From NCBI GenBank assembly GCA_964234715.1, contig OZ174276.1: 64,000 bases of DNA. One strand, given 5' to 3'. Under the pieces are notes generated by a model. It saw nothing but the letters and a program-made list of their open reading frames with translations. It was not told where the DNA came from and did no database searches. The stretch's first letter is position 1. Every line of letters begins with the position of its first letter. This document shows, in pieces, positions 3,480 through 58,785 of this stretch. The position numbers and the translations under genes are program-made. This DNA is from Podarcis melisellensis. Lineage: Eukaryota.

Positions 3480-4330
3480 TCAAAACGCTTCGAGGCTTGC
3501 ATAGCGCTGCTTCTGCTTAGATCCGCTTGATGGCAATCCATGGAGGAACTCATCCGAACTACAACTCCTATGAAACCCCGCGCTGTTGCACAATCCGGGG
3601 CAGCGAGCGCAGGGCACCCCTGGAAGTTGTAGTTTCATTGGCCGGAAGCCTAGTAGAAGAAAAGGGGGACTTTCCGCCATCACCGGGACTACAAGCCCCA
3701 GCATGCTTTGGGTAACCCGGGGCGGTAATGGCGGCGGCAGCGCCTGCGCATTGCGGTCTCCGTGCGGACCGCGCAGAGTGAATAATAAAGCTCTCCTCCT
3801 CGGTGGTAGCGGGCGGCGGCGGAGGGAGTGGAAGGCAGGAGCATGTCGAAGGGCCCGGTAGCGACCGGGCCTCCCGCGACCGGGCCGGTGGCGCCCGCCA
3901 GCGCGCTCCAGGCGCAGCCCGAGAAGCCGCAGCACTACACGTACGTAGCGAGAACACCCGCAGCCGCCACTTACTGCTGCTGCGACCGCCGCCGCCGCAC
4001 CCCTCCGCCCGGCACCCGCCCGCGCGCCACACACGCCTGACGTCAGCGGGCAGCGTGCGGCTCGCGCGCACGGAAGCCAACCGCCCGCCCGGAACCGGCT
4101 GGAACCGGTCGTGGCCGGCCTGGGCCGGTGGAATTTCGCCTGAGTGGGAGGGGGCGGGGCGGGAGCTGACACCCCCCCCGCCGCCGCCGCGCGCTTTTCC
4201 GTTCCCGCGCGCGAGTGCGCGCGCAAGAACAACCCCACATACATAATACACACACCCCACAAGCTGAGGCGCGCGATACCCATGATGCGTTGCGGCTCGC
4301 GCACCCCATGGCTCCCTTTACGTTGACTTT
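3480..4330. promoter_or_regulatory. CpG island / UNK promoter, 5' UTR and exon 1 region
   Basis: Abrupt GC- and CpG-rich tract in an AT-rich background. Motif matches: ZNF143/THAP11-type ACTACA motifs (3558-3568 +, 3614-3633 -, 3688-3706 +), ATTGG 3637-3641, ETS CCGGAAG 3642-3648, GGGACTTTCC 3666-3675, YY1-like AATGGCGGC 3727-3735, NRF1-like GCGCCTGCGCA 3740-3750, CRE TGACGTCA 4038-4045. Confidence 0.85.
3843..3940 (+). CDS. UNK: UNK coding exon 1 (MSKGPVATGPPATGPVAPASALQAQPEKPQHY-T)
   Basis: MSKGP...LQAQPEKPQHYT matches the vertebrate Unkempt N-terminus. In-frame upstream TAATAA at 3783-3788. Donor AC|gtacgt, phase 2. Confidence 0.95.
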
Positions 4331-5355
4331 AGGGGGGTAGTGGGTACCTCTTGTAATCTTCCTCGCCCCCCTTTCCCCAAATCATCTGTTTTGTACTTGG
4401 TAGTGTCTCTCTATCTCGACTCTGCCTTCTTCCGCTTAGTAAAACGGTAATGCGTCTTTCCATGCCGCCAAGTAGGACGGTTGTGAAGTCAAATGTTGGA
4501 AAAACAAGTGGTTTAGTTTACTATGTTTCTATATAATCTTCGCTTTCTTTCTTAAGTACTAACCTCGTGTTAATGGCCGTGGGCTTGTGGTAAACACAAA
4601 TAAGGAGATCCTTTATCTTATTTCGAACTGTCTTTTCTAGAGTAAAGGGACCATCTCATAAAATCTAAGCTGCTCTTTGCCAGAGCTTTGACTTTCTTTG
4701 CTGTTCTTCCTTGGCACTGGGTTAGTTTGTCTTTCTCTCAGGAGATGCCCCGTTAACATTTCAAGAATAAGGGGAGCTGTGGTGTGTGTTTTGTGAAGTG
4801 AAGGATGCCAAGCCCAGGAGAAACGTTACGTAGAGTAAATTGCTATAATTCTAGGGGGGGAAATGGTAACAAAAGAGAGAGCATAAAATAGTGTTTTTTC
4901 CTCAGTCGCTGTAGTACAAAATGCTTTGGTAGAAAAATGTCAAAGGGATACTGAGTGCTGAAATAAATGGCCTGTTGGTGTTCTGTGGCAATTGTGTGAG
5001 GAAAGTATTGTTTTCACTCCATTCAGAAATCCTGGTAAATTCTCTTGTGACCTAATTCTGTGAATAACTGGCTAAGCAAATGCAGGTATTTTGGACCAGA
5101 CAGTGAATTATGTGCCACTGGTGACATCACCAACCTCTGTAACATTACACTGCAGGTGCAAATCCACAAAGGATGCTAGTACCTTGGCATAGTGTTGTGG
5201 GACAGTGGTACTATGCTAGAAACAGCCTCCATTTTTGTATGTGTCTTGTGGTATAATGCAAAGCTAATATATGGCACAGAATTGGCCAGAAATGCAGTAC
5301 AGCCAGGTTAGAACTGAAAAAGTGCAACCCATCTATCTTAGCCTGCAATCCTATA

Positions 5356-5596
5356 CAGTGGTTCCTCGGTTTTAGAACAGTCCTGTTTAAGAACGATTTG
5401 GTTTACGAACTCCACAAAACTGGAAGTAGTGTCCCGGTTTGCAAACTTTACCTTGGTCTAAGAACAGAATCCAAATGGTGGAAGGGCACCAGTGGCGGGA
5501 GGCCTCATTAAGTAAAGCGCGCCTCGGTTTAAGAACAGTTTCGGTTTAAGAACGGAATTCCGGAACGGATTAAGTTCGTAAACTGAGGTACCACTG
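5356..5596. mobile_element. Tigger/pogo-like MITE nested in a short palindromic repeat
   Basis: TA|cagtggttcctcggttt ... aaactgaggtaccactg|TA. Confidence 0.8.
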
Positions 5597-6918
5597 TACC
5601 TACATTCCTTGGACTAAACCCATTGAACTCAATAGGGCATACTTTTGATTGGACATGTGAATTGTCTCAAGGATATGGAGAAGTGGAATTAAAATGTTGT
5701 AAATCAATAAAATGCTTCAGAGCTAGTAATACCGCTACAAGCGGTCACTGTGTTTTAACTGATAACAAATGTTAGTGCAGAGTTGTCTTACTTGTAACAC
5801 AGAAGATCCTGCTGCTGTAGCTTGCTCCAGTATACCTCCTCCATGCAAATGCTCATTTATTTAATAAGTTTTGAAATTAATGGCTTCCTAGCCAGAATGT
5901 GGTACACTCCTGAAGCAGGCAAAGTTGAACAATAAAATAAATTGGATACATACGGTAACTGTTGTGCAAAATTGCTTGGGTATTTGTTCTGCTGGTCAAT
6001 TGGGACTCAACCAATTTTAATATCAGGCCTAGTTTACAAGTATGACTGTAACACACACAAAAAAAATCAAATGGTGAAATAAATGATACCAGGAATACAG
6101 TTCATAGGTGTGTTTTTTCATTTTTGCCTTGTGGGTGCATTTTGATTATTTTAAAGTTTACTGAACTCATCTGTGAGGTTTAAAAATCAGTTTTCTTGAA
6201 AAAATTTGCTCAGACAAGACTTGCTGATAGACTTTGCAAATTGATGTTTCAAATGCAGTCTATTCTTTGCATGATCACACGTATTTTACTATAGTAATCA
6301 GAGCTTATGCTGAAGTAAGTGTGAGCTTACTTAGGAGTAAGTGGGGTTAAGATTGCAGCCTTAGTGCAGCAAACACATTTGTGTTCACAGAATGTAATGC
6401 TTGGCATTCATTTGCTTATACTTTTGGCATTTATTTGTTGTTGTTGTTTTGTTGTTGTTGTTTTTGCAATGAGAGAACCATGTGTCTTCTGGTTCTGCTG
6501 ACTGTAATCTGTCCTTGATCCCTTCTCTCAAAAAGTTACTAAACATCTGCTTATAAGTATAAGGAATTTCTTGCTGGACTGTTCCTTGCATGCATATTTA
6601 TGAAGTAATTAGTAATATGTGTATTTAATAGTGTGTTATGACTTCATCTACTGTGAGGAATTAAACAGTTGTCTTTGCAAAGTGAAAACTTTGAGAACTG
6701 AGATAATCGTTACTATACACGTTGCTGATGACTGTAGATATCTCCCTGAAGAAACATTATTGTTGCTTGAATCTGCCTTCCCCAGAAGAAAAACCTGACA
6801 GCCACTTTTCACCAGCGTTAGAAACTGAGATATGAAAGCTAGGAGCTAAATGGCACCTTAAACCAAGGTTATGGGTGCAACAATGGAATATCTAGGCACA
6901 CTTTTTAATAACAAGAAT

Positions 6919-9376: not shown

Positions 9377-10565
9377 GTTTAAAGTCATGTGTAAACAAGG
9401 CAAGAAAGTGAGTGAAATCATAGAATCATAATACACTCCTGAATTTGCCTTCCTTTTTTGTAACACCACAAATTTGCAATAAAGTTATAAACAAAGGCGT
9501 GTCTGCTTGAGGTGATTTAACCCCAAGAGTTCAAGCAATGAGTATGACATATTAATTCTATCAGTCAACCATTAGGTCTTCCACTTGCAGTCTGCAGAGC
9601 AGTTATTAAAAGGGAAAGCCTGAATAAGAGACAGTTAAGAGTTTACTAGACGAGAACTATAAGGAGTAATAAGTGTGAAAAGCAGTGAGATTTCCATGTG
9701 AACAAAGCTCATTGTGCTGAAGAAGCTGAAGATCAAATGTAGTTATTGGCATGGTATGTTTGTCTCCTTTCATAGTAAAATGATCATGTGAAATATTTGC
9801 TTGAGTATTCCCATGCAAAACACTTAACTAGTGGTCTATTTTTATAAGCAAATAGAACAATGTTGGTGTTAAAAGGATTTCAGTGAGATTTCTAAGTAAT
9901 GCTTTTTTGGAATTTTGCATCTTGATCTTGGCAACATGTTTCCTTCTAGCCATGGGACCATGAACACAGACCTCATGGCTACCTACAGCAGACCGATTCA
10001 GGCGTAGTTTCTGTACCAAACTGAGCAAAACTTACTCCATTGCTGGATGTGGTTTTACTTTTGCAATGTAGCAGCCTGCTTTTACACATGGTCAAGCTGA
10101 TTAACTTGCTGATTAATAGGGAAACCTGTTTGGGGCAGTTACCTGAAAATTCTGTTGATTTTAGCAATTAATTTTTTTCCTCAGAGAAGCATTTTTGGTT
10201 TCATTTTCAGTCAAGGTACTTTGGCTTAACTCTGTTATGAATCTGTCACACTAGGGCTGCAGTATCTAATTAAGTCAATGGGATTATTCAGGAGTTGGCT
10301 GCAGGCTACAAGGTTTATACTAAGACAAAATAGCTCACATACTTCCCTATTCCTGGAGTTGAGGTGGCACCTGGAATCTGTTTACAGAGTTTTGGCTGTA
10401 GCGTTGGGAAGCATTCGCTGGAAATAGATATAAGGACATGCTTATTTTGAAATGCAATTTTATAATTGCACTAAGAATACGTAGTTCTTGAAATGTTTTA
10501 TTGGCTCTCAAGACCCCAGAAACATAGTCATATGAAAAATTTTACAATTTTGCACTCTGTGTTTC

Positions 10566-14149: not shown

Positions 14150-16246
14150 ACCTTCAACACTCCCTCTGCTGTTTTTCTCTGCGGGGTGGGGTGGGGGGGC
14201 AGAACTCTTCCACTCAAGTTCACAACTTCCTACAGCTGCTTTTCATTACAAAACTATCATGAGATTGTTACATGTATCTGCCATGTAATTTCTAGTTTGG
14301 TCTCAATTCCATTTTGTAACATGGTATTGTGATTTGGCTAGATGTCATGGCTGTGATTTCGATGTTTCCAGAAATCTCTTAGGATCAAGAATTCCATTTT
14401 AAGTTCTTGAAATAATTCCATAGCAAGGGTCATTATATTTTTTTTTTACTTGTGTTTCTTGATCAGTAGTGAAATGAACTCTGGTGACTTGGTGATCAGA
14501 TTTAATGCCTCCTTGAAATTAGGACAGGAATTTAATTTAGTGCAGCATTACATTTACATTGTCACAATACTTATAAGATTGCTGCAATTATTAATATACA
14601 TCAGTTACAGGGCTTATAATGAAGTTAATTTTGCAGCAATAACAGATCACCAGTAAAGTGGATGAATGCTGCACACAGTATAATGATAATTTAACTTAAG
14701 ACGATGCTTAAATATATGATGATCTGTAGGACAATTTTCATGTCAAGCAAATAAATAGCTGTTGGTCAATATCTTCTCCTTTGGGTTGATTCCTTTGACA
14801 AGGATGTGCTTAGGGACGCAGGCAGAGTTCCATTTCTTGCAATGAAATTATTACCCAGCACTGATTCTAGTTTAGAATTGTTGGAGTACTGAAAGGCAGA
14901 AAAAATCTCTGGGGTGGGGGGGCTGTATCAGGTCCTGTATCAATCTAGCAACTGACGTTCTTCCCAGCATAAGTATGCATCAGGGCAACTAAGGCTGCTT
15001 CTGTGTAAAAAAAAAAAAAAAAACTTACTAGGTATGAAGCTAGTTTAGAAATGAATCCAACCAGGCTCTTCCAAGATTAACCGCCACCACTCATTTGGAC
15101 ATCATGCCTGGGAATGTTAGCATTAACTACATTCTTTGGGTATATGAAGATGCTTCACTTGTGTTATTTCACAAGACATTTGAAAAAGCATGTTAAACAT
15201 CTCGGTCAGAGAGTTTAAAACCCCCCTGATATTTTACCTTCCCATGCTATTTTGCCCTTTTACAATCTTTAGTTGTGTTAAGTGGGAGAGCTGTTAACAT
15301 ACCCAGGCAACCCCTCATTTCCGCATGTTTAATATGTGTGCAACTGTGTTCGGCATCGCACCAACCTGGAAGTGACCTGGAAACATCATAAAGATGTAAC
15401 TGAAACATCACTATAAGGGTGGGGTGGAGGTGGAATGGGGCAGAGTGGAGCGGGGTAGCGTGTTTGCAGAGAACGTGATGCAGTAAATATTTCTAGAGCC
15501 TACCAGTGCTGTGTTTACGATTAATTGGTATCAAGTAAATCACTTCAAATTTAATCTCTTTGAAATCATACTAATAGTATGGTAAGAGCTGAATAAAAAT
15601 GAGAGGCTTAAAATTGTGGGCAAGACTTACCTGAATGATCTTTTCGTACTAATTAGTTGATATTTATTTAGGTGCTAAAGATTATTTCAAGGCATGCCAG
15701 AACTGTCATCTTGACAGATGTACATTTATTGAAACTCTTTCCCTTTCATCTATTTGCCACACCCCTTCATTCCCAATTTCATTTGTTTCCACAAAATGTA
15801 TGTTGTCTCGAGCAGCTTAAATGGTGGTTGATCTTTGCAAGGCTTGCAAAATTATGTCTTGCTGGTGGAAGGGAGATAATGCAATGGTAATCAGTGTTGT
15901 ATTCAGGAAAGAGACATATTGGTCTTTTTATGCCAGGAGGTGTCTTGAGAAATTAGAATTCAGCTATTTATTAGATGGTGCCAACCAATTTACTTTGGAT
16001 TGCTGATACAGAAAATTCAAAAATTTAGTTGGATGTTACAGTGTAGGATAATCTTAAGATAGAAGCATGTGTATATTCTCATGAAGTGATGATTTAAAGG
16101 GGGGCTGTAGTTCAGCAGTGGTTTGCATGCAAAAGCTGCTAGATTCAACATTAGGAAGCCACCTTATACTGTTACAGACCATAATTCTATCTACCGTAGT
16201 TCAGTATTGCCTACACAGACTCAGAGATTCTTCAAGGTTTCAGATA

Positions 16247-16489
16247 CAGAGGTACCTCGGGTTACAGACGCTTCAGGTTACAGATGCTTCAGGTTACAGA
16301 CTCTGCTAACCCAGAAATAGTACCTCAGATTTAAGAACTTTGCTTCAGGATGAGAACAGAAATCGTGCGGTGGTGGCATGGTGGCAGTGGGAGGCCCCAT
16401 TAGCTAAAGTGGTACCTCAGGTTAAGAACAGTTTCAGGTTAAGAACGGACCTCCAGAACAAATTAATTTCTTAACCCGAGGTACCACTG
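16247..16489. mobile_element. Tigger/pogo-like MITE
   Basis: TA|cagaggtacctcgggtt ... aacccgaggtaccactg|TA. Same family as 2735-2950. Confidence 0.85.
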
Positions 16490-19238
16490 TAGAAGCCTGG
16501 AGACTCCAGAAATTGGAGAAGAGCTATGACTGTGGTGCAGGGCATGTTTTCAGTGTAAGAGTTCCCAGCTTCAGTCACCAGCATCTGTAGTATGGGAAAG
16601 TGGAGGGTGAGAGGGAGCACTTGGAAAGCCCCCTGTTTAAAATCCCAGTGAATGTGAATGAGTCTTCTTCAACCTCATCTCTTCCCATTGTTGAGCTGCA
16701 ACTTCCATCACCCCTGATCATCGCTGTGCTGCTGGCAGTTGGTCCAACAACTGCCAAGGACACCAGATTGGGGAAGACTGTGTAAACAATGCTGAGCTAG
16801 ATGAATGTATTTTTTGACTCTGTATAAAGTAGTTTTCTATTGCTGCTGGTTATGAGTCTCATGCTCACACAAATGAACAAACAACTTGTGTCGTATTTGA
16901 TGCAGGAATGCCTTATAAGGAATGCCTTATAAAGAAGAAAGAAAGTAAGCTGTGGTGCTTAGCCTAAAAATCTATAGTCTCTTGCTTATAACAAAGATTT
17001 TTAGGTATCTGGTGGAAAGAGGATTTGGGGAACAATTAGCTTTCTGAAATGTGATGCTTTCTGTCTACCAGCCTGACTTTCTTAGCAGCTGGAATCCAGG
17101 CATTCCAAAATTCCATTTTGCAACATCTAGCATGCTTTGGCTTCAGCTACTGTTCATTCTAGATAGCTCACCATGAGGTTTTAGCAGATCCTATTTGCTA
17201 CTCCATGCATACAGTATGGTTTATTGTCTTAGCTAGCTAGTAATCTTTGACATTTGGGCAGTTGATTCTGCTTTACAGAGCAGGTGAAAGTTTTTGATAA
17301 AATTAAATTTGGCCAAGGTGTTGATTCTTAAGTATCAGCAGCTACAAGCCAAACTTCGGAAGAGTTGGCCAGCACTGGCATTTCCACTTAACTGAGACAC
17401 TGGATCATCAAATATGCACAAGCAGATGGTTAGCCTCATGTTAATTACAGAACACATTTGAGCCAAATTCAGACAGATATTCGTGTTGATTTGCATACTG
17501 CAGACTTAAGATTCCATTTTCCAATGGAAAAGCCCTTGAATGAATGACTTATGCAGCCTACTGGATATTTCTGATAAGGCCATCAGTTCAGAACCAATTA
17601 ACACTTGGAATAACTTCCTATCACAGGGTTCTAGGCAGCATTCTATATTTTTTTGAGATAAGCAGAGGAGTACAACATGTGACTTTGCAATTGCTGTAGG
17701 TAGGTATGTGTAATGTAAATTAACAATTGGTTCTGTTAAACTTTTATTTCTCTGGACAAAAGTATCGTATACAAAAAAGCACATTTACTTAAACTTTACT
17801 TCCAGCTGCCCTTATTTATGATCCTGCAAATGTTCCCTATATAAGCAATCTTATCTATAGGTGAGTGTTCTTGGAGCAGTCTTTGCTATCAAAGGAAGCT
17901 GTGGCCTGGAGGTTCTTACTTTTTATCTCTCTAAGTGCCTAAATCAGTTGTTCCAAATTGCCGATTTACTTAAAGGATGAGTCCTGGGCTATGTGTCCTG
18001 CTCTCATTTGACTAGAGAGAGGCTGTTTGGGTGACCTTAATTTTCTGAGGGTCCATTGTGGGTTATGTTCCTGATTTTCAAAGCTGGAGAAACAGTTATT
18101 GAACTGAGGCAACAGAGAGTTTTTTTAGCCCGTGAGTGACTAATTTAGCAACTAAGGGAAAATAAAAGAATAAAAAAATGTGGTGCTGTTCTATAAATGG
18201 AATTCTTACATACATTTAAAAATAGAGCTTCTTTGGGTTGCTTTTGAGGAAGTAGCATAATTGCAGAATAGTGTGCCTCTCCTACTTGGTTAAGTTTCTG
18301 ACGTATTAATGTAGTATCAGAAAGAAGTTGTATAGCTGTTCAGGAAAAAGGTCCTGCCATGATTAAGACAATATGCAGCGCTTTAAAACCATATGAACCC
18401 CAGAGGAATTGCTGCTGGTTGGATTGTACCCGCCACTTCTACTTGCTTGACGCATTGAGTAAATATATGTTGAAATTGGGCTAGCTAGTTCAATTTGAGG
18501 TTATCCACAGTAAAACCTAGGAACTGATTACGTTCTCTGAAGTGAAAATGTTAGGATGAATGGGGTAGAAACAATGTACTTATTTCCTTAGGATCCTGAC
18601 TCTGAGTGATCCTGATTGTATTTTGGTGATAACAGGGGCATGGTCTGAGATATTAAGAAGACAGATCTCCAAGTTGTGAACCTAAGAGATAAGATTTTCT
18701 GTGATTAATAAATAATCCATTCTGGAGTAATTTTTTGACTTTGCATGCCCTCAATCCAAGACTCATTATGTGAACAGCCCTCTCTCTCATGCAAGGAAGC
18801 CTTTGGGACACATGTCTGATAACTACTTAGTATGTGGCTTAACTACTTGGTTTGTGGGAGGAAAGTCTATTTTTGAGCCTGTGCTCATGTAGTAAAATGG
18901 ATATGCGGGCATTCTTTACACATGATGGTGTATATTTGTACAATATTTGTGTACTCCTTTTCTTATGTAATATTTCTCAAAGCAGTTCCCAATAATAGAA
19001 TTGGATTTATAGACAGGTCGTACTGCCTTGTCAATTCCGAATTGCAGGTGCTGTCAATGGGATCATGTGATTCCTTGTTCTGCCTCTCTCGAAGGTTGTG
19101 GCGACAAAGGGAGGTCCTAGTAGCAGATGTTTTTCAGAGTCCTAGACTGATACTTTTTGAGAGAGGAGACCACACACAAGTGCATGCCTTGTAGTGTTCA
19201 CCTCACCGTTCAATGTCTTTTGTGGCAGACCCTTTCTT

Positions 19239-20473: not shown

Positions 20474-20966
20474 CCATATTTTTCGCCCCATAGGATGCAC
20501 CGGCCCATAGGACGCACCAAGTTTTTTTGGGGGGAAATAAAGAAAAAAAATTATTTTCCCCCCCCAGGCGCTTGTGGGGCCGGCAGCAGGGAGAAGCGCC
20601 CTTCTCCCCACCGCCCGCCTTCAGACCAGGTCCGGGGACAGCGGGAAGATGCACTGCACCTTCCCGCTGTCCCCGGACCTTGCGGGGCTGGCGGTGGGGA
20701 GAAGCACGTGTCTCCCCGCCGTCAGCCTCCAAACCACCTCGGGAGACAGCGGGATGGTGGCGTTCCGCCTCCCCACTGTCCCCCGACCTTGTGGGGCTGG
20801 CGCTGGGGCTCTCCTGAAGCCTGGAGAGCAAGAGGGGTCAGTGCGCACCGATCCCTCTCGCTCTCCAGGCTTCAGTGAAAGCCTGCATTCACCCCATAGG
20901 ACGCACACACATTTCCCCTTCATTTTTGGAGGGGAAAAAGTGCATCCTATAGGGCGAAAAATACGG
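20474..20966. mobile_element. Tc1/mariner-superfamily MITE with GC-rich interior
   Basis: TA|ccatatttttcgccccataggatgcac ... gtgcatcctatagggcgaaaaatacgg|TA. Confidence 0.85.
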
Positions 20967-23525: not shown

Positions 23526-23702
23526 GTGTCCATTCCTGCATAGAACTACTGGTGACACAGAACGTAGATATCACCTGCGCTACTACAAAACTGGAATCTG
23601 CATCCATGAGACTGACTCGAAAGGAAACTGCACCAAGAACGGTCTCCACTGTGCTTTCGCTCATGGGCCCCATGACCTCCGCTCTCCAGTTTATGATATC
23701 AG
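23526..23702 (+). CDS. UNK: UNK coding exon 3 (CPFLHRTTGDTERRYHLRYYKTGICIHE...SPVYDIR)
   Basis: Acceptor cctgtag|, 177 nt, donor AG|gttagt, frame continuous. Confidence 0.96.
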
Positions 23703-25192
23703 GTTAGTAGACGATGAAGTTCCTTGTCTGCAGAAGTATTCTTGCTAAGCCAAAATGGAACAGATCAGAGTACAAAATGCCGCTGAATGTGTAGTGTTTA
23801 GCATCAGAAGTATGATGGTGTTCTGTTTTCTCTCTTCCTCCACCCCTGCCCCGCACCCCGCACAAAATAATGTGTTATATACAATCCTTTAAGGCCGTTT
23901 CCTGTGACTTTTTATGCATCACAAGGTGACTTGGGCAAGTATCTTGGTGCCAGGAGCCCCATTATTATGAATGGGTTTAATATAAGCCAGACTATTACTA
24001 AGCCTCAACCATTGCACTCACTAGACATAAGATAGCAAGGTGGCTAGGAAGAGGTTAAATCTGCCCCCTCCAACTATACCCCCCCCCGGCATATCTCCAC
24101 CACCAGATGACTGTCAAAAATCACCTATCAGTTTAAAGAAAGGGATGGTATGACTTTAATTTCTTAGAACAAGATTTTTATAGACACAAGCAGCCTAAGT
24201 GTTTGTAAGATTGGGTGAAACTGGACATTGGCAGCAAACACTGGTCTAGGAATTCTGGTCACCCCCATACATCTGTGAAACAGAGGGAGAGGACATGATT
24301 TGCAGGGAAGATGCTTATGGTATGGGAATATGCTCTGAGAAAAAACCCTTTTTTTTCTATCCACATTTCACCATAGTCTACAACCACCTTATCTGTTTTG
24401 TCCCACAATGCAGCAGATGCATATCTGAGTCCCATGACTAGAGAGGGAGTTGCAGTGGGAAAGTGGCAGCAGGGGAAGGATTAATTACCCTTCCCCTGCC
24501 TGCTGCTTCTTCCCTGCAGATCACACCCTCCCCCAGCTGATGTGTAGTTGTGTGTTACTGACTGGGGTTCCCAGCCCTGAGTCTGCAACCAAGTGTCTCT
24601 TTCAGCCCTTAGAGGTAAATATCATTTCATTAAGTATATGGGAGAGCATGTTTGAAGAGATGTTAACATTAGACCTAAGGTATTCTTTCCAATAGTTCTG
24701 TAAGATGAAAATACTTAAGTTTAGGAAATAGACATTGTATTTGTTCTATTTATGTTATGGCTATCGAAAGGGAATATGTGAAACATGCTAGGAGTTTACT
24801 TGAGTTTTGTTTTGGGAGGTGGGGAGGATGAATTATGCTATATTAACTTGCTGGAGGCACACCAGTTGAGATTCAACCAGGATCTTATTTTACCTTCTTC
24901 ATGAAGCACCATGCCCCTGCGTGCAAATAAGTGTGTGTGTTGTATAGGGGATTAATAGAACAACAGTGGAAAATGGGGTGCAATATGTCTTGTAGGAGTT
25001 TTCTCCAAAATAGCAGGAGGACAGAGTGCTCATACAAATCCTGAATCTCTAAAAGTGGGCTTAGCAAAAAAAGAAATAAAGAATAAATGTATGGGAATTC
25101 CTGCATTGTGGCAACTCCTATCTGGTAGACACACATCTCTTTCTCTGAATCTTCTCTGCCTGCCTATTGTTCATTTAACTCTGTTCCCTAAG

Positions 25193-31942: not shown

Positions 31943-33108
31943 GTAAGTATCCACTCTAACTGGGGAGAGAGAGCATTACACAACCTGTGCTGGTTGAATG
32001 AAAATTGTTATTGTAAGAGGCTCCCAACAGTCAGTCCCCTCTTCCTTAATTCAAACCTCATCTGTTTTACATTTCGAAACAGTTGCTATGTTTGCCACAG
32101 TCCTGTATGTTTGCAGATCAGTAGCTCCCAGCCAACGTGGCGTGTTATACCTCCACTGTTGGGAGGCAGTATGCCTCCGGATACCAGTTGCTGGGAATTG
32201 CAGATAGGCAGAGTACTGTTGTGCTCATATCTTGCTTGCAGGCTTCCCACGGGCATCTGGTTGTCCACTGTGAGAGCAGGATGTTGTGCCAAATGGACCA
32301 TTGACCTGATCCAGCAGGCTCTTCCAATGTCCTTCCATTATGTGCCCTTGGGCACATAAATTAGATTCCCTAAAAGTTTCTAGTCCTTATGGTTATGAAT
32401 ATCCACATAAACATCTCCTAGAAACTCTTAAGTACAGAATTCCTGACAAAGCACTCAGCCATTAAACATTTTGTCCTGAAGATACTCTCCTTTTCTTTTG
32501 TCCATTGTTCTTTAGCAAAGCAACCTTGAATGACTGCATATGTAAAAAACAAAGCCAAGTGGCTTCTGATAATTTGGAAGTTCTCTCTCCCAGTTGTGCA
32601 TAAATACTAAAGAACTCTCATTTTTCTCATTGCTGTGATGGGTCCAATAGTTATTTATGACAGGGAAGGATGGGAAGTCCCCAATAATAGTGATGCAATC
32701 AAACATTTTAAAAAAAAGTTTTTAGTTGCTTTCAATTCTGTACTTGTAAGCTGCCTTAAGCATTTTTCTACAGAAAGGTAGGGTGTAAATATTTTAATAA
32801 ATGAAAATATTAAGTTAATTAAAAATATTTATCAATTTAGGTCAAGGAAGAATGGAACACGTGGTTCATATGGGGCTGTAAATATGTAGGAAAACTGATA
32901 CAAAGAATTTGGGTTATGGGAATAAGAGTAAGAAGGTGTGCTGAGTGAAAATATTCAGCACTATGATCACTATAAACCACTTCCCAACCACCTCTGTTTT
33001 CTAAAGCACAGACTGACGTCACATTTTTAATACTTTTTTCTTTTAAACTTGAAGCATATAATTGTAAGATTCTGAAGAAGCAACAAGGTTTTGCACTAGA
33101 AATATGTA

Positions 33109-33461
33109 CAGTGGTGCCTCGCAAGACGAAATTAATCCGTTCCGTGAGGCTCTTCGTATAGCGGTTTTTTCGTCTTGCAAAGCAAGCCCATTGACAGCTT
33201 AGCGGATTAGCGCTACAGCTGTCAAGCGGCTTCCAGCGATCAGCTGTTAAGCAGCTTATCAGCGGAACAGCTGATAAGCGGCTTAGCGGCTTAAGAAAAG
33301 GGCGAAAACGAGAAAAAACCGCGGGGGGATGCAAGATTTTTTCCGTCTTGCGAAGCAACCCCATAGGGGAATTCGTTTTGCGAAGCGCCTCCAAAACGGA
33401 AAACCCTTTCGTCTAGCGGGTTTTTCGTCTTGCGAGGCGTTTGTCTTGCGGGGCACCACTG
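33109..33461. mobile_element. Tigger/pogo-like MITE
   Basis: TA|cagtggtgcctcgcaagac ... gtcttgcggggcaccactg|TA, with internal cgtcttgcga repeats. Confidence 0.85.
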
Positions 33462-34402: not shown

Positions 34403-34523
34403 TATCTGAAGAAGTGTACATGCACACGAAAGCTTATACCCAGAACAAACTTAGTTGGTCTCTAAGGTGCTACTGGACTATTTTTTTATTTATTTTGACT
34501 GCGTCAGACCAACTACCTGAATC
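34403..34523 (+). mobile_element. Penelope-like terminal fragment with degenerate hammerhead motif, sense in UNK intron 9
   Basis: tatCTGAAGAagtgtacatgcacacGAAAgcttatacc...ttagttggtctctaaggtgctactgga, homologous to 1456-1582. TSD cctgaaaaaa (34393-34402 and 34524-34533). Confidence 0.75.
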
Positions 34524-38289: not shown

Positions 38290-40596
38290 GTACATGAAAG
38301 CAACAGAGCTTTCTTTGATCTTCTGCCAAGCAGGGTTCGCCCCATCAGCTGGCTGAAGCAGCCTAACAAGCTCTCAAAACCAGTCCCAACATTATATGTT
38401 GGTTTGCGGCCAATGGGAGACCTTGGAGCAAAAGGACTCTCATTGACTAGCAGATTGGAAATTTATTCCACTGGTTTCAGATGTCCCAGTTATGTTTATG
38501 AAATTGACATGGCTTATTTGACACACTAAACATGTTTATGAAATTATGACATGAACATTTCACGGAGGGGGGCGGGAAGTCATTTTAAAATAATGAGAAA
38601 CAAATTGGATTGTTTTCACTGTTCTGCTGTCACAGGACCATGGCAAGACATTATCGCCACACATTGACAAACTACCGCATATGTATCTCATCATTTGTAT
38701 GTGGTCATTTCAAACCAGCGTCCATTTTGTGTGTGTGTCTGGTTGTTCAAGTGAAAATAGTCCTTACAACCTTGGTCCCCTATTGTAAGAATCCCATAAT
38801 GCATTTACACAGGTTGTTGGTTTTTTGTGAACTAAGCCACATGCAAATTGGTAGGTGCGTGACTCGCTATTTCCGCTCACGCTGTCTGAACTCTGTCTCT
38901 GAATGGCATAGCCATCAGCTTAAACCTGATCCTCCATGGTGCCAGATGTTGTATGTTGCAGACCATTGCAGAATGCTCCGCAATGGCCTTCCATCAATAC
39001 ACAATTCTATTTTCACCACATCCTGCCCTCAATATTGGTTCAGATTTGAGCAGTAGCACAAATCAGAATGATTTTCCACATACCCAAGTGATCAAGTCTG
39101 CTTTCACAAAAACCAAAGAGGTAGAATTCAGCATGAGACAATTCTGCACTGGTATGGTGCCTATGCTTATTCTGGCTAAAACAATTTGGAAGTGGGTGCT
39201 GTTTATGGTGCAGACGTCACAGTTCAAGATAGGAGTCAAAATAGGGTCCAAATAATGCTTTTCATGCAACGTAGACACAGTGTTGGTTCCCGTGAAGGAA
39301 CTGCCCTTTTAATGATGGTTGCAAAGACTGTGCTCCTCAGATTATCAGTAAACTGATTGAGGGCTCTAGTTTTGTGGGCAGCACCTTGTATCACAGTCCT
39401 CCTGAGTCGACTTAGAATAACACGTTGGTTACTTCTATTGTAACTCTGTCTAGGTTAGAAGGAGGATGGAGAGTTCTATGAAATGTAAGAGTCCCTCCCG
39501 AGGCCATACTAGAAGTACTCTAATTTCTGAATCTAATTTCTGAACAGGTGCTGCTGTGCATTTTCAAGCTTTATAAACATGAGGGGTAAAAAACTGAGTT
39601 TTCAAAGAATGAAACCTGAGACTCTTATTATTCTGACAACATTAGCAAATTCCATGCTACTGCGTTTGATTCCTCTGAGCTCCTCTGTTGTTCAATTTGG
39701 GAGGTGATTTTCCCCACTCTCTTTCCTGTAGATCTAGCAGAAATAATTATGGTGTTGAAATTTAATGATCTGATCTTCTCAGACATCTTTTTACTGAAGA
39801 GTATAGTTTTTTACAGGTGTATTAAAAATGAAAGTTGTAATTTGCCCCATTGAATTTGTGGCTTCTCCCTTGACTTTGAATATCGAGAAACGGACCCATT
39901 TGCTGTTGTTTAACTGATATTAAGAACATAACTTTCATCCCTAATATTGGGGGGGGGGGGAATTGAACTTACAGAAATATTTTTGGCAGGATATGTAATG
40001 TGATGGGGAAATATATTTCTAACTAGTACAATAGCCCTTGGAAATGTAGTTGCTTAATCCATGTGATATGATGGACACATGTTTTTTTGTTCCTGTGAAA
40101 AGAGTCTTAAAGATGCCCATTATCACCATCGCTGGCCACTTCTTTGTTTTAGAGAAATGAAGCCTCTCGCACTCATAAACAGTGGAGATAGTGCAAAAGC
40201 AATTTAGTTTAAACATGCATAATATCAATTAGTGTATTGTCATTGTGGAGAGACAGATGAAAAAAGCTGTCTAAATGTCTCTCTTGACAGTCCCTTAAAC
40301 TCTTAAATGACCCCCTTGTATGCTGGAGTACAGCTGACACTGTCCACATGTCCTATTTTGCATAGTTAATACCCAAGAAAGTTGCTACTGTACCTTCCTC
40401 GGCCAGAGGAACAGTTCTCATAATGCTCTTTCTGAAGGTAAAGAGGGATGGAAAGTGGAGAAAACCCCCGGACTCCCCCGTCCTTTACTGGTGCAGAGAG
40501 TGAAGCAAACACCTGCTGTTCAAATTCCTGTGCTGTGCTTCCACTCATAACTCATGGCTTCTACATTCCCATCCTTTCTGTGTGTTCTTTGTCCAG

Positions 40597-45175: not shown

Positions 45176-45820
45176 GTAGCGTCCGCTGGGAGGGGTGAGT
45201 GAGAGTGGTTTGCCAGGATACGAATGGGCAAAAGCATCCACCTAACTGCTGAATAAATAGTTTGAGGGTCCAAAAATAATAGACAAAGTCAGATTTGGTG
45301 TGTGTTTATACTGTAACATAGTTCCTTCACAGCAGACACAGGGGGTTTGTTTGTTTTTCTTTTTTCGCTCTTATCAATGGAGAAACGGATTGATACCTTA
45401 GATATGTTGAGGAGTAGGTTGCAAATTGTAATAGGATTTGAAAATGTTCATGCCAAGATTGCTAGTGTTCCTCTAGGAGTATTGGCTTTTTTCCAGTTGT
45501 ATCTGAGCACACCTTTCCAATTGTTCCAATCTTTTTGATTTATGTATCCCCTGAAAATTGATATGCTCCTCACCTTTTTGCAGTAATGCTCTAATTATTT
45601 TGAGGTTAGTAGCTGTGCACTGAAAGAATGGTAAGCCCCTCCTTCTGCATTCAAGATGCTGTGTAAATGTTCTCCCTCTGGGGATGTACGTTTCCACCCC
45701 GCTCTGGCCAGGTTGGCTAACAAGACTAGGGTGGGTGTGAATATATGTTTTTTGCTAAACTGTTCCCGTAACTAGATTGAGACAGATGGATTGCATTTAG
45801 TAAATTGTTCCTGGAGCTGG

Positions 45821-46418
45821 TGTTAGGCGCTGGAGTCAGGCATAGGTCAGCAATAAAACAATAAAGCACCCGATGCCAGTGAAGTTAATTCTTTATTCAA
45901 AGAAACAAAACAGCTCAGTGATCACAGCAACCCATCCCAGTAGGTCTTGCCCTAATGAGGCAGTTGTGAGGACTGAAGGTCCCTGCCTTCCCAACGCTCT
46001 CTAAGGCTCCTCCTCCAGTTCCTTCCCCAGCAGCCTAAGGCTCTGCCACCTTGTATCTCATTGCTCTGCCCTCTTCATTTCTCTGTGTGGTCTGGGAGAC
46101 CAGCAGGGATGGGAGCTGGTTGCAGTAGGAGAGGAAGACTCCCTGGCTTCTGCAGCCTGCCCCTACTCTGCCTCTTGACCCCACTCTGCTTCTGCCTCTG
46201 CTGCTGGAGTGTTCTCTGCCACAGCCTCTTCCTGCTCACTAAACCCTGTGGCCTCTTCAGCTTCCAACATCTCCTCCTCCTCCCAGTTTGCTCCCGTTTC
46301 TCCCTCTGACCATACATTGTTGTCCCACCACCAATCCCCTGGCTGTGAGCTTTCTTGCCCTGGGGGTTTCCCAGCTGGTGCCACCCACCACTCTTCTGTA
46401 TCCAGCCAGTCCATAACA
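45821..46418 (-). mobile_element. Solo LTR (probably Gypsy-type), antisense in UNK intron 14
   Basis: TGTTA...TAACA termini, 5-bp TSD gctgg (45816-45820 and 46419-46423), AATAAA on the - strand at 45892-45897. Confidence 0.8.
46001..46414 (-). pseudogene. Decayed LTR-encoded ORF (~137 aa; acidic/Trp-rich N-terminus, basic C-terminus)
   Basis: A single frame runs from the ATG at LTR nt 5 to TAG 46003-46001, interrupted by two stops (46165-46163 and 46060-46058). Confidence 0.5.
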
Positions 46419-47139
46419 GCTGGGCAGGCAGGATGCTCCACTTTAAGGCACTTTGGTTTTTTCCTGTTCACATGTCAAAGCCATGTAGCTAAAATAACCT
46501 ATAGAGGAGTTATGGTAAAATGTGGATGCCTGGGCTAGAAAACCTTTGTGTCACTTCTGTGTGTGCGGATTGAAAGGATCTCATTAGCTCAGGGGTGTGT
46601 TCCCAAAAATCTGTCTGGGCAATTATTGTGCCACAAGGAAAGAATGGAAAGAACAGCCCAGAGCTGGAGAAGGCTGCCTTTCAAGCTTTGGGGGAACAAT
46701 TTACTAAAATAATCTATATAAGTACCAACTACGACTACTTTATTTTAACTGCTTTATTATGCGTACAATAATAAAATACCAATTCCTCCCCCATCTCCAC
46801 CAAAATAGATACATGGTACCTTCTTGCCATGTGAATATATTTTTGAGAAGATAAACACTCTAGGATCCAATGTGTGTGCACACCTTTTGCCAGTAATGTG
46901 CCCACAATGTTTGCTTGGGAAATTTGCCATATTTTGTCTCACACTGATTTCAGGAGTTTGTATAGATACAAGAAATCTGCTCCATATACAAAGCTTTAAA
47001 TAGAATGCTGGGGAAACTATTCAAGCTGCGGAGTGAAGCCAAGTGAGGAGATGAGAGAATTCACTTCACATCCTCCTCTCCCACCCCACCCCCACACTGT
47101 TTCCCAAATTACAAATGACTTTTCCTTTGGGATACACAG

Positions 47140-47397
47140 GCCTGTGATGCTTGGAAAAAGGAAGCTGAGGAAGCTAATGATCGTGCCAACACGGCAACCA
47201 TAGAATGTGAGCTGGCCCGGGAGCAGAGGGAGGCCCTGGAGCTGCAAGTGAAGAAACTCCAGGAGGAAGTGGAGAGGATCCACACTGGCCAAGACCCCCA
47301 GTTCCTGCGTTCGCTCTCTGATGTAGAGACCCTCTCCCTCTCCACACTCTATAATCTCCAAAAACAGCTGCGTGCCAACCTGGAAAGAGTTGATAAG
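47140..47397 (+). CDS. UNK: UNK coding exon 15 (ACDAWKKEAEEA...LRANLERVDK; coiled coil)
   Basis: Acceptor tacacag|, 258 nt, donor AAG|gtaggt. Confidence 0.95.
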
Positions 47398-52599: not shown

Positions 52600-55500
52600 C
52601 TCTTTGAATCGGGTCTACAGTGTTTATACAGAATTGCAGCCATTTTCAGGCTCTTTGGTGGTAACTGGTTTGTAACACTTAGTTTTGTAAACATTGTGTT
52701 TTATTGCTTCCTCTGCCTTTCTATGTGATTGTCCATAGTGAGACGATGATTTTGTGGGGGGCGATTTGTTTAGTCCTGAATTGCCACAGCTTTGTGTAAC
52801 TCCAACAGAATCCTACAGAGGGTGTTAGATGTGTCACTGGTCTCCTCAAGCGTAACTTAGAGGTAGTTTCTTTGTCCTGTTTTTAAGGCCTGGCAACTCT
52901 ATAGAATCTTGCTGGTTATCAGATTCCTCTTTCCCACTCCCCGCAACACCCCCCTAGGCAAATTGCTTTGCTGGTGCGATGAAGGGGAGAAATTATACCA
53001 GAGACAAAAGCCTGTTTACATTTAGTGCCACAACCCAATCTGTCTGTTTTATTGTGAAGGACCAAAGAATCCAAAATGGGATTTAAAAAATAAATAAATC
53101 TCCCAACCCCACAAATTCCGGACTGCTCCCAATCCAATTATGCTTTTTCCTCTACCTCGTCTCTGTCAGTATAATGCATAGGCACGAGGACATAGCAGCA
53201 GGCTGGTTTTATCCACACCTGGGAATCGTAGAAGCCCACGCTTCTCTATCCCATTCTTTAGCTCTTTTAAGACGCACTTTTTTTAGAAAAAAGAAAGCCT
53301 AGATTTCTATGAATTTTAATATTGAAATGAAACACCTGAAATGTGAATGCGTTTGTTAGGTACCAAATGAAAAAGCAAAACCAATCTGTTTTGTAACTTT
53401 GGGTTAAGTTTCTGCATAGGAATTTTTTGTTTACCGGGATAGGATGGGATGAACCATGAATGAGAGGAAATATGCATATTTTTGTTTAACCGAAAGCAAA
53501 TCTTGATTGAGCTAGTAGTTTCTGATTTGAATAGTACCTGCTCAGCACTGGGGGGTTTTTTAGGCTAACTTGATTATGTGATTGGGTTTTGCCTGATGCT
53601 AAAGCTATTATTTGGTGCTAGAGTAAATCATCCTAAATAGACAGCCCTAGGAGATGTGCTTGGATTATGAAAGTTCACACACTTCTGAGCAGAATGCCTC
53701 TTGTATTCCCTCTCTGGCCTCTATGCCAAGGCCTAATGGGGGGGGGGGGGAATCATTCCAAAAGTTTGGGGAGGACCTGCTAATATGACTAATTTTACCA
53801 GCCAAGGGAATATTGTGGTTGCAAAAACCAGAGTATCCAAAAAGGCTGGTAGACTTACCTTGATTAGCAGTAGAGAACTATCAGGTACCTGAAGAATTAG
53901 TAGAGAAGTAAGTGTTAAGAATTAACCTGTATATTGCTTCTTTTAAAATGATTGGCTTTGTGGGGCTGAGGAATTTCCACACATTCGGGCAGATGACCGA
54001 GTAATCATACAGCTCAGAGGTGCCGGGCTATGCTTCTCTACTGCCCTACTTCAGCAGAGGGAAAGCGGCACCTAACAATTTATTGTGGGGAATTGCCTAT
54101 ATGCAGCACACAGGGTCTGGGTTTGCATGTAACACTTAAGTGATGGCTCAGTATTATAAGGCTAAGCTGCAGCCCTGCAGTCTCTGGTGCATTCACACAA
54201 GCTTTCACTTCCATTTTAGACTAACCACAGATTCTTGTGACATTTAAATCTGGATAAACTGCATTTAATCTTAACTACAGATAGTGAAAGCAACTTCAAA
54301 CCATGGTTTATAAAGCTGCCTCTCTCCACCCCCATAACCATAGATACAATTAACCTCCGTTTACGGTTTGGCTGTAATGTTCAAGCAGAAGCTTCCAGTT
54401 TCCTCCTCGTTGCAGTGCTGGAGGTGGCAAGCAGAGCATACATACCCAAGGTTTCCTTCAGCTTGTCCTTCTAATGCTAAACCATCACTTAGCATCACAT
54501 GTAAACAGAGCCAGAGACCCCACACAGAATTCTTCACAGGAAAATTCCTTTTTCTTTTTAACTTTCCATAAGTCTCCAAGCTTAACCTGAGCCACTTCAA
54601 GGGCTGCACAGCTCAGACAAATGAAGAGAATTTCCTTCCTTAGCATGGAAAGACAAAGGACTCAACAGTTTAGTGCTGTCCCACTAGACAGACAGGACTT
54701 TCCCATATTGTTTCCTTCCCCAAAAGGGAAAAGTATTTACCACCAGTGTGGGGGCATTTTCTCATTTTTTCCCTCCTTTTGATTCCCTTCCGGGATTATA
54801 TCAGCCTTTAGAGCAATGCAACCGGAAAGTAGATGTTGCTGGCGAAAAGTATTATAAGTGAAGTATTCCTGCAAACTGGTGACTGTGGATCAAAAGATCT
54901 CTATGGGGCTTCCCCACTCTGTAGCTTCCAATGTTTGAAAGGAAAAAAATATATAAATACATTCTATATAAATTCTTAAAATTACACACTACAGTATTTA
55001 TGGTGGCAATTCTGAACCAGTCTCTCTCCTTGGATTTTCCTAGGCAGGGGAGGGTGGAGGGTGGCTGGGACAGAGAGCCGCTCAAGTCTGTGTAGAAGTC
55101 AGCCAAAAGGTAATAGGTGGTGTGTACAATGTGGTGTTTGATTCCATTATTATAGACTGTAATGCGGAACTGTGATTTCAGCTGTTGTTCTTTCTCGTAT
55201 TCTGTATATATGTGTGTTTGGCTGTCCAGAAACCTGGTTTTAGACACTCTTTCTTGGCAAAGTGGATTTGCATGTGGAGCTTAAAAAAATGCAATCTTGT
55301 GTCACAATTTCCAAGGGCAGGATGGATTTTCTAGAAGACAATAAATTTTTTTATTTTTTTGCTAAGAAAAAAAAGGCAGCAGTTTTGTGTGTGCATATGT
55401 ATGTGTGTTTTAGAGTGTATATGTGGTGTCTATGTGAGTTTTCTTAGTACCTTTGATCTCTACTTGAAAGCTAGAGAGGTTGGGGGGGGGACCTGCCTAA

Positions 55501-58144: not shown

Positions 58145-58785
58145 AGCCTGGGCGATATATGAGGAGCAGACCGCGATGTCGGTTCCACTGAGAGGTATAT
58201 CGCTGCTGAAACTGCCACCACTCCTGAGTCCGTCTGCTATCAACATCTGCTGGAGGGAGTCAAGAGTTCGTCCAGTGGGCGCTGCTTAGCAGAGGGACTC
58301 TGAAGCGGTGGTGGTTTCACCAGCGATATACCGCTCAGTGGAACTGACATCGCGATCTGCTCCTCATACAATGCAGAGGGAGAAACAAGCTGTATTGGCG
58401 AGGCGCCGATACAGCTTGTTCCTCCCTCTGCATCTTTAAACTGCTCAACTGAGCAGTTTATAGCTGCTCTTGCCTCAGCTGAGCAGTTAAAGGAGCCCCG
58501 ATGCTCTGCCCATTCACCTGTGAGCGGCAAGAGCGCAGGGGCTGTCTCAGCTGGGGAGGGGGAAACTTTCCCAAGCCCCAGCTGAGCTGCACAAACTGTG
58601 TTGTCCCAGCCCATGAGCGTCTGGGTGAAACCGCATCAGTTCCCAAGGTGAGAGCTGGGGCACTTTCACCAGGTGCCTCACGGGCAGAGGCCAATGCAGC
58701 TTGCTTTTCAGCATCTCGGTATAGCACCACGATGTTTGGCTGGCGATATAGCGCAATTTTGAAAAGCTGATGTTGCCCAACCCTA
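58145..58785. mobile_element. Probable non-autonomous hAT-like DNA transposon with multiple internal hairpins
   Basis: Termini ...ctgggcgata / ...gttgcccaaccct, CpG-rich, with internal inverted repeats. Confidence 0.5.

Follow-up and report, generated by a model that had tools for sequence, protein, structure and literature searches.

A decayed reading frame in the U3 region of a lacertid solo LTR, possibly the tail of a polyprotein

Vertebrate LTRs are regarded as non-coding. An intronic LTR in Podarcis melisellensis raises the question of whether its U3 region once belonged to a protein and, if so, to which one. The window analysed is the whole 64,000-nt stretch of DNA around this locus. 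A sequence-only reading had described a 598-bp element with TGTTA...TAACA ends and a 5-bp target-site duplication (TSD), a minus-strand ATG at nt 5 that opens a frame over about 70% of the LTR, and an AATAAA about 100 nt after the frame. These descriptions stand. The element occupies 45821-46418 with GCTGG on both sides, the frame 46001-46414 covers 414 of 598 nt (69%) with an identical translation, and 103 nt separate its last stop from AATAAA (Table 1). The uninterrupted part of the frame amounts to just 83 codons, or 42% of the LTR.

The reading preferred here, with a probability of about 0.4, is that the U3 frame, now decayed in a dead solo LTR, encoded a disordered and acidic tail at the C-terminus of the polyprotein made by the parent element. 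Copy 45821-46418 is most likely inert.

The insertion and its family

The TSD abuts the LTR on each side, with no internal region and no second LTR at the locus, and the element is a solo LTR. The AATAAA near the 3' end points to the minus strand as the sense strand of the LTR. A 5-bp TSD is compatible with several LTR-element superfamilies. Because the rule of a 5-bp terminal inverted repeat plus a 5-bp TSD yields five places in the window and is a weak criterion alone, the LTR call depends on read data. Four further TG...CA stretches with a 5-bp inverted end and a 5-bp duplication (9413-9882, 23694-24130, 38350-38914 and 52891-53728) are taken as chance background. No other copy of the LTR was found elsewhere in the window.

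Public contigs from 4 of the 24 listed sequencing runs were aligned to positions 45450-46800. In three DNA-type runs from three organisms, 5,645-6,209 contigs per run match the LTR, mostly at less than 95% likeness, and the flanks are matched by single contigs. Between 67 and 71 contigs per DNA run depart from the LTR precisely at 46418 into dissimilar flanks (agreement 0.34-0.35). A sharp family end is documented at 46418; the left end is absent among the matches listed. The LTR belongs to a high-copy, dispersed repeat family. Copies of this family turn up in Podarcis gene models, so the family is, to judge from these sequences, lacertid, in agreement with the earlier description of a solo LTR of a squamate family.

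Contigs from organisms A, B and C bridge the LTR junctions on both sides, those from organism G the left junction only, with flank differences of, for example, 5 of 409 and 7 of 420 letters. Since these bridged junctions occur in close relatives, the insertion, common to the four related organisms, predates their split. An empty-site joint was not found among the matches listed, beyond which lie 359 more. The right flank carries an 11-nt insertion at 46613 and a 9-nt deletion at 46637 that are common to organisms B, C and G and missing from the window and from organism A. The host gene is assigned to the Unkempt family by matches to Pfam PF18384 and PF25427 in upstream plus-strand exons (2 of 50 ORFs scanned, of 106 listed).

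Table 1. Features of the solo LTR, its minus-strand frame and the host intron; positions are those of the 64,000-nt window.
Feature	Position	Strand	Basis
Host intron, GT...AG, of an Unkempt-family gene; carries the LTR in antisense	45176..47139	+	Splice ends; Pfam hits in upstream exons
Next host exon, positive control for codon periodicity	47140..47397	+	Host gene
Solo LTR, 598 bp, TGTTA...TAACA ends	45821..46418	-	Ends, TSD and read data
Target-site duplication GCTGG, left copy	45816..45820	+	Sequence inspection
Target-site duplication GCTGG, right copy	46419..46423	+	Sequence inspection
AATAAA, likely poly(A) signal	45892..45897	-	71 nt from LTR end; 103 nt past last frame stop
138-codon frame with 34 Asp/Glu, 11 Trp and two internal stops; predicted disordered	46001..46414	-	Translation; predicted structure
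Open part, codons 1-83, Trp-rich then Glu/Ala-rich, with strong codon periodicity	46166..46414	-	Translation, periodicity
First internal stop, codon 84	46163..46165	-	Translation
Second internal stop, codon 119	46058..46060	-	Translation
Terminal stop, codon 138; close to where natural copy P0004 ends	46001..46003	-	Translation, alignment
Short 6/12-nt tandem repeat; natural copies vary here by 1-3 whole codons	46184..46206		Sequence, alignments
Degenerate Arg/Ser/Leu motif, codons 122-128, R-W-Q-S-L-R-L, no intact RRSxRL	46031..46051	-	Translation, alignments

Other repeats lie elsewhere in the window. An inverted repeat at 1353-1548 has 97-nt arms that are 96% complementary and separated by 2 nt, and a related single arm lies 33 kb away at 34403-34496. 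A short repeat family with shared ends is present in several copies (2730-2952, 5382-5598, 16242-16491 and 33103-33438) and presumably resembles a Tc1/mariner-derived MITE. Nested inverted-repeat clusters occupy G+C-rich stretches at 20562-20875 and 58147-58433. Another G+C-rich stretch, 3480-4381, has long overlapping open frames on both strands and is probably a promoter CpG island.

A coding signature in U3

Base use by codon position over the 414-nt frame gives a chi2 of 32.5 (p 1.3e-5), which none of 1,252 other 414-nt windows equals, for a frame that was picked post hoc for these periodicity tests. When each block is given a random phase, which retains local repeats, the periodicity of the frame is equalled with p 0.0006-0.02. 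The same phase is chosen by all six 60-nt blocks of the frame. Of 46 GA dinucleotides in the frame, 34 occupy codon positions 1-2 (p 2e-8), as do 9 of the 12 in codons 1-43, the Trp-rich part without repeats (p 0.004). Over its first 270 nt the frame reaches a chi2 of 39.5, compared with 27.4 for an equal length of host exon. Seven purine-skewed control windows, which are few and less skewed than the LTR frame, reach a chi2 of at most 10.7.

One-phase periodicity holds for codons 1-90 and is weak beyond. The last 144 nt of the frame, which contain the Arg/Ser/Leu motif, give a chi2 of just 7.4; in the distal part, 2 of 9 45-nt blocks and 2 of 6 69-nt blocks adopt another phase, and periodicity is absent from the last 180 nt of the LTR. 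The U3 frame bears a real, decayed coding signature that is not explained by composition alone. Such a signature had been implied by the sequence-only reading and is confirmed by a periodicity that exceeds all 1,252 windows, keeps one phase and extends to the non-repetitive Trp-rich part.

Stops are infrequent in this region, with 2 seen in 137 codons versus 5.7 expected at the composition of the frame (P 0.075). Another minus-strand frame runs without a stop for 112 codons in the region of the LTR frame; this second frame, 46075-46467 (-), is open for 130 codons in all, lacks Glu periodicity and illustrates how stop-poor U3 is. Frame 46001-46414 is already open at the first whole LTR codon, and 4 nt precede its ATG within the LTR. 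A Ty1-like arrangement, in which the frame would read from the 5' LTR into gag, is rejected because the frame closes 180 nt short of the LTR end in the window copy, and P0004 terminates near the same position.

Natural copies and the Arg/Ser/Leu motif

A phmmer search over 1.84 billion representatives returns 8 matches to the frame at 49-65% identity, all of 61-194 aa, and later searches add 3 more copies; the alignment search contributed only P0010 and P0011. The resulting 11 translated natural copies match the frame at about 40-66% identity. All 11 look like translated copies of the same LTR and are evidence of DNA homology, not of translation. With stops read as X, word-index protein searches match 0 of 2,252 and 0 of 7,999 candidates. 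Searches of Pfam, PDB sequences and the ESM Atlas with the frame protein give no family match, and an Rfam search yields nothing usable. The protein, again with stops read as X, is predicted to be disordered apart from one short helix at residues 121-129, in a low-confidence AlphaFold model (pLDDT 54.6, pTM 0.16). Two motifs were scanned for at the DNA level. The first has 0 matches in metagenome, genome and viral collections; the second has 0 in genomes and 1 in metagenomes (L001), and this 26-nt match at 1041-1066 is a chance match within a helicase-like gene of a bacterial contig, unrelated to the LTR.

The natural copies extend and interrupt the frame in different places. Codon 84 is crossed without a stop in 5 of 9 copies. 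Across codons 53-135, P0004 matches at 51% identity without leaving the frame, and it ends approximately where the window frame ends. At least two copies, P0004 and P0007, carry frameshifts, seen as short segments that align with a different frame of the window. Gaps in the protein alignments, several of them inside the 3n repeat, are in frame by construction and are excluded as evidence. At the ATG position, 3 of 5 independent insertions have Met, and the other two have Thr and Ile.

Replacements were analysed in 9 of the 11 copies against an analytic neutral model, with P0010 and P0012 omitted because they represent the locus type of P0006. Mismatches are a little more conservative than the model predicts (BLOSUM z of about 2, on non-independent, score-selected pairs). 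Among 34 distinct states, 11 are Asp/Glu exchanges, where the model expects 5.2-9.5 (P 0.009-0.34); a count of 13 of 41 against 3.4-5.2 expected was dropped because it is inflated by repeated counts of one column. One-step changes over codon positions 1, 2 and 3 number 56, 47.5 and 15.5, where the expected shares are about 0.43, 0.45 and 0.12. Differences between the window copy and the family inside the frame number 11, 7 and 4 at these positions (n = 22 among those listed, with 244 more rows beyond them). Amino-acid changes among copies look close to neutral. This pattern fits old, decaying solo copies and is no test of selection on the parent element.

Three gene models from Podarcis lilfordi and P. 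raffonei (P0006, P0010 and P0012), all automatic predictions, extend, without a change of frame, through some 80 codons of a related copy of the LTR. Two of the three carry a Pfam SCAN domain. These models are candidates for an exonisation common to two species, or for a gene-calling artefact.

The sequence-only reading had also restored an RRSxRL chromatin anchor near the end of the frame, of which a weaker form survives. The motif reads W-Q-S-L-R-L in the window, Q-R-S-L-R-L in P0004 and R-C-S-L-R-P in P0011. The S-L-R core is thus present in all 3 sequences, namely the window and both natural copies that reach the motif in frame, and P0004 and P0011 each have Arg at one of the two positions preceding it; neither has both. 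Counted against RRSxR, the window copy has 1 of 3 arginines and P0004 and P0011 have 2 of 3 each. An Arg-rich motif near the end of the frame is therefore a plausible feature of the LTR family, judged from these alignments, and the full anchor, found in 0 of 2 natural copies, is not borne out. The degenerate pattern, which was chosen after the fact, occurs just 5-10 times in the 127,996 codons of the six frames of the window.

Many contigs cease to align at 45993 or 46213, or join across the motif third of the frame, so the motif third is the variable part of the frame. Summed contig depth is about 11-fold lower over the motif third than over the acidic part, a measure that cannot rank the parts. 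Two reports give RRSxR as the nucleosome-binding motif of HMGN, Dsup and Dot5, with all three arginines required (PMC12487698, PMC13347269). The putative lizard motif resembles RRSARL of these proteins in its S-x-R-L core with the anchor Arg, present in the window copy and P0004, but differs in that both leading arginines are missing from the window copy and no natural copy has both.

Possible origins of the frame and known systems

If the U3 frame is a polyprotein tail, the pol frame of the full element would continue across the polypurine tract and on into the 3' LTR, where the ATG at nt 5 would specify an internal Met of the polyprotein. The tail may end in a short Arg/Ser/Leu motif that possibly tethers integrase to chromatin, as is thought for the CR motif of plant CRM elements. 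Recombination between LTRs would have removed the upstream coding sequence from copy 45821-46418, and because none was left, the copy would be unexpressed and would decay neutrally. The open start at the first whole LTR codon and the presence of Met in 3 of 5 insertions both fit a reading frame that, in the full element, continues into the LTR from upstream sequence. The sequence-only reading had mentioned an ORF beginning upstream only as a caveat, and it is this caveat that is preferred here. The link to pol is tentative, drawn from the open start of the LTR and from plant precedent. The gag-pol frame reaches into the 3' LTR and encodes a targeting motif in CRM group A and Beetle/Bingo elements (PMC3059260, PMC3605345), and the C-terminus of Ty1 integrase is large and disordered (PMC8487063). 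Counting against a polyprotein tail are the lack of a Pol-fused protein among the matches, the near-neutral replacements, the weak periodicity of the last 144 nt and the plant origin of the precedent. A Pol-length protein with the tail of the frame is absent from the 8 phmmer matches and from the 7,999 candidates of a longer-protein search, which is a weak search, and a literature search found no vertebrate case of a pol frame entering the 3' LTR.

The main rival holds that the full element had a stand-alone accessory gene, which would start at the ATG at nt 5 and be read through the 3' LTR from an RNA that is either spliced or subgenomic; its product might be an acidic transactivator with a chromatin anchor, and the gene would be dead in the window copy. 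This rival is possible though less probable than the polyprotein tail. It shares the same periodicity, and it draws on the frequency of Met at the ATG position (3 of 5 insertions), the 34 acidic and 11 Trp residues in 138 codons, the AATAAA 103 nt past the stop, the failure of protein searches to return a Pol fusion and the rarity of the degenerate motif pattern (5-10 occurrences per 127,996 window codons, for a post hoc pattern). Against it, the same 3 of 5 insertions mean that the ATG is not invariant, and Pfam, PDB sequences and the ESM Atlas give no family match. The complete motif is also found in 0 of 2 natural copies, and HMGN-like motifs need all three arginines (PMC13347269). The transactivator or anti-silencing function proposed by the sequence-only reading is unsupported, as no evidence beyond composition speaks for it. 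Rather unlikely is the alternative that the frame was never translated, and that U3, rich in purines, poor in T and grown by slippage of 3n-base units (GAG, GCAGAG), imitates a Glu-rich ORF, with the protein matches being the same DNA repeat carried in the same frame by gene callers. Such mimicry would account for the scarcity of stops (2 against 5.7 expected, P 0.075), the other frame open for 112 codons, the 6/12-nt repeat inside the frame, the near-neutral replacement spectrum, the frameshifts in at least P0004 and P0007 and the absence of a third-position excess in the 11, 7 and 4 differences listed (n = 22). It sits poorly with a single phase over about 270 nt that includes the non-repetitive Trp-rich part (p 0.004) and exceeds the signal of a real exon, with a block randomisation that retains local repeats and still gives p 0.0006-0.02, and with the seven purine-skewed control windows, few and less skewed, that peak at a chi2 of 10.7. 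Neutral change after insertion is, moreover, expected under every other reading.

Two further accounts have little probability. U3 might be a captured piece of host or foreign coding sequence with inherited, disused periodicity, which would reconcile a coding-like signal with near-neutral change; all 11 protein matches resemble LTR copies, however, and none indicates a donor gene, which makes a capture improbable. Lower still is the probability that solo LTRs, including copy 45821-46418, express a short acidic protein and disperse it through the genome. The first 83 codons are open, and the automatically predicted Podarcis gene models P0006, P0010 and P0012 place the in-frame translation of a related copy after a SCAN domain. 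The copy nevertheless lies antisense to the host gene and contains two stops, and other copies have frameshifts. With just 4 nt ahead of the ATG, LTR anatomy suggests that a solo LTR would lack a promoter or leader for the frame. Expression from its own promoter is unlikely on these grounds, and the earlier proposal that solo LTRs disperse the protein finds no support.

Several known systems resemble parts of this locus. LTR-overlapping frames are already known as a kind, and the lizard U3 frame adds a variant. HIV nef and MMTV sag are U3-overlapping accessory ORFs. Like such retroviral ORFs, the lizard frame lies over much of U3 and upstream of a poly(A) signal; unlike them, it has no Pfam or PDB match and is known here from the LTR alone, without env or internal genes. 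The locus shares with ordinary vertebrate solo LTRs its TG...CA ends, 5-bp TSD, poly(A) signal, thousands of diverged copies and antisense intronic site, but differs in exon-strength codon periodicity over nearly half of the LTR. Most vertebrate solo LTRs are not known to show exon-strength codon periodicity over such a length. The plant elements of CRM group A and Beetle/Bingo (PMC3059260, PMC3605345) likewise have a coding frame within the LTR and a short putative chromatin-targeting motif at its end, and their solo LTRs would carry an orphan piece. The lizard element differs in its host, which argues against membership in CRM group A, and in an acidic, Trp-rich frame; the likeness is drawn without sequence similarity or integrase continuity. 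A literature search, with subscription journals mostly outside it, turned up no squamate LTR with a described coding frame, and Repbase or Dfam may well hold the family.

The boldest form of the proposal is doubtful. It holds that U3 of this lacertid family may encode an undescribed disordered module, a Trp-rich acidic domain joined to an HMGN-like nucleosome anchor, serving as a transactivator or, in a vertebrate counterpart to the plant CR motif, as a tail that targets integrase, and that thousands of solo LTRs may have seeded this module into host genes, some in frame behind SCAN domains. If U3 does encode a chromatin-binding tail or an accessory protein, LTR-encoded targeting, described to date in plant centromeric chromoviruses, would gain a vertebrate example, and a mobile element would have put an HMGN-type anchor to a new use that can be tested. 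Every solo LTR of the family would then be a ready-made acidic exon, which may explain the in-frame SCAN gene models of Podarcis.
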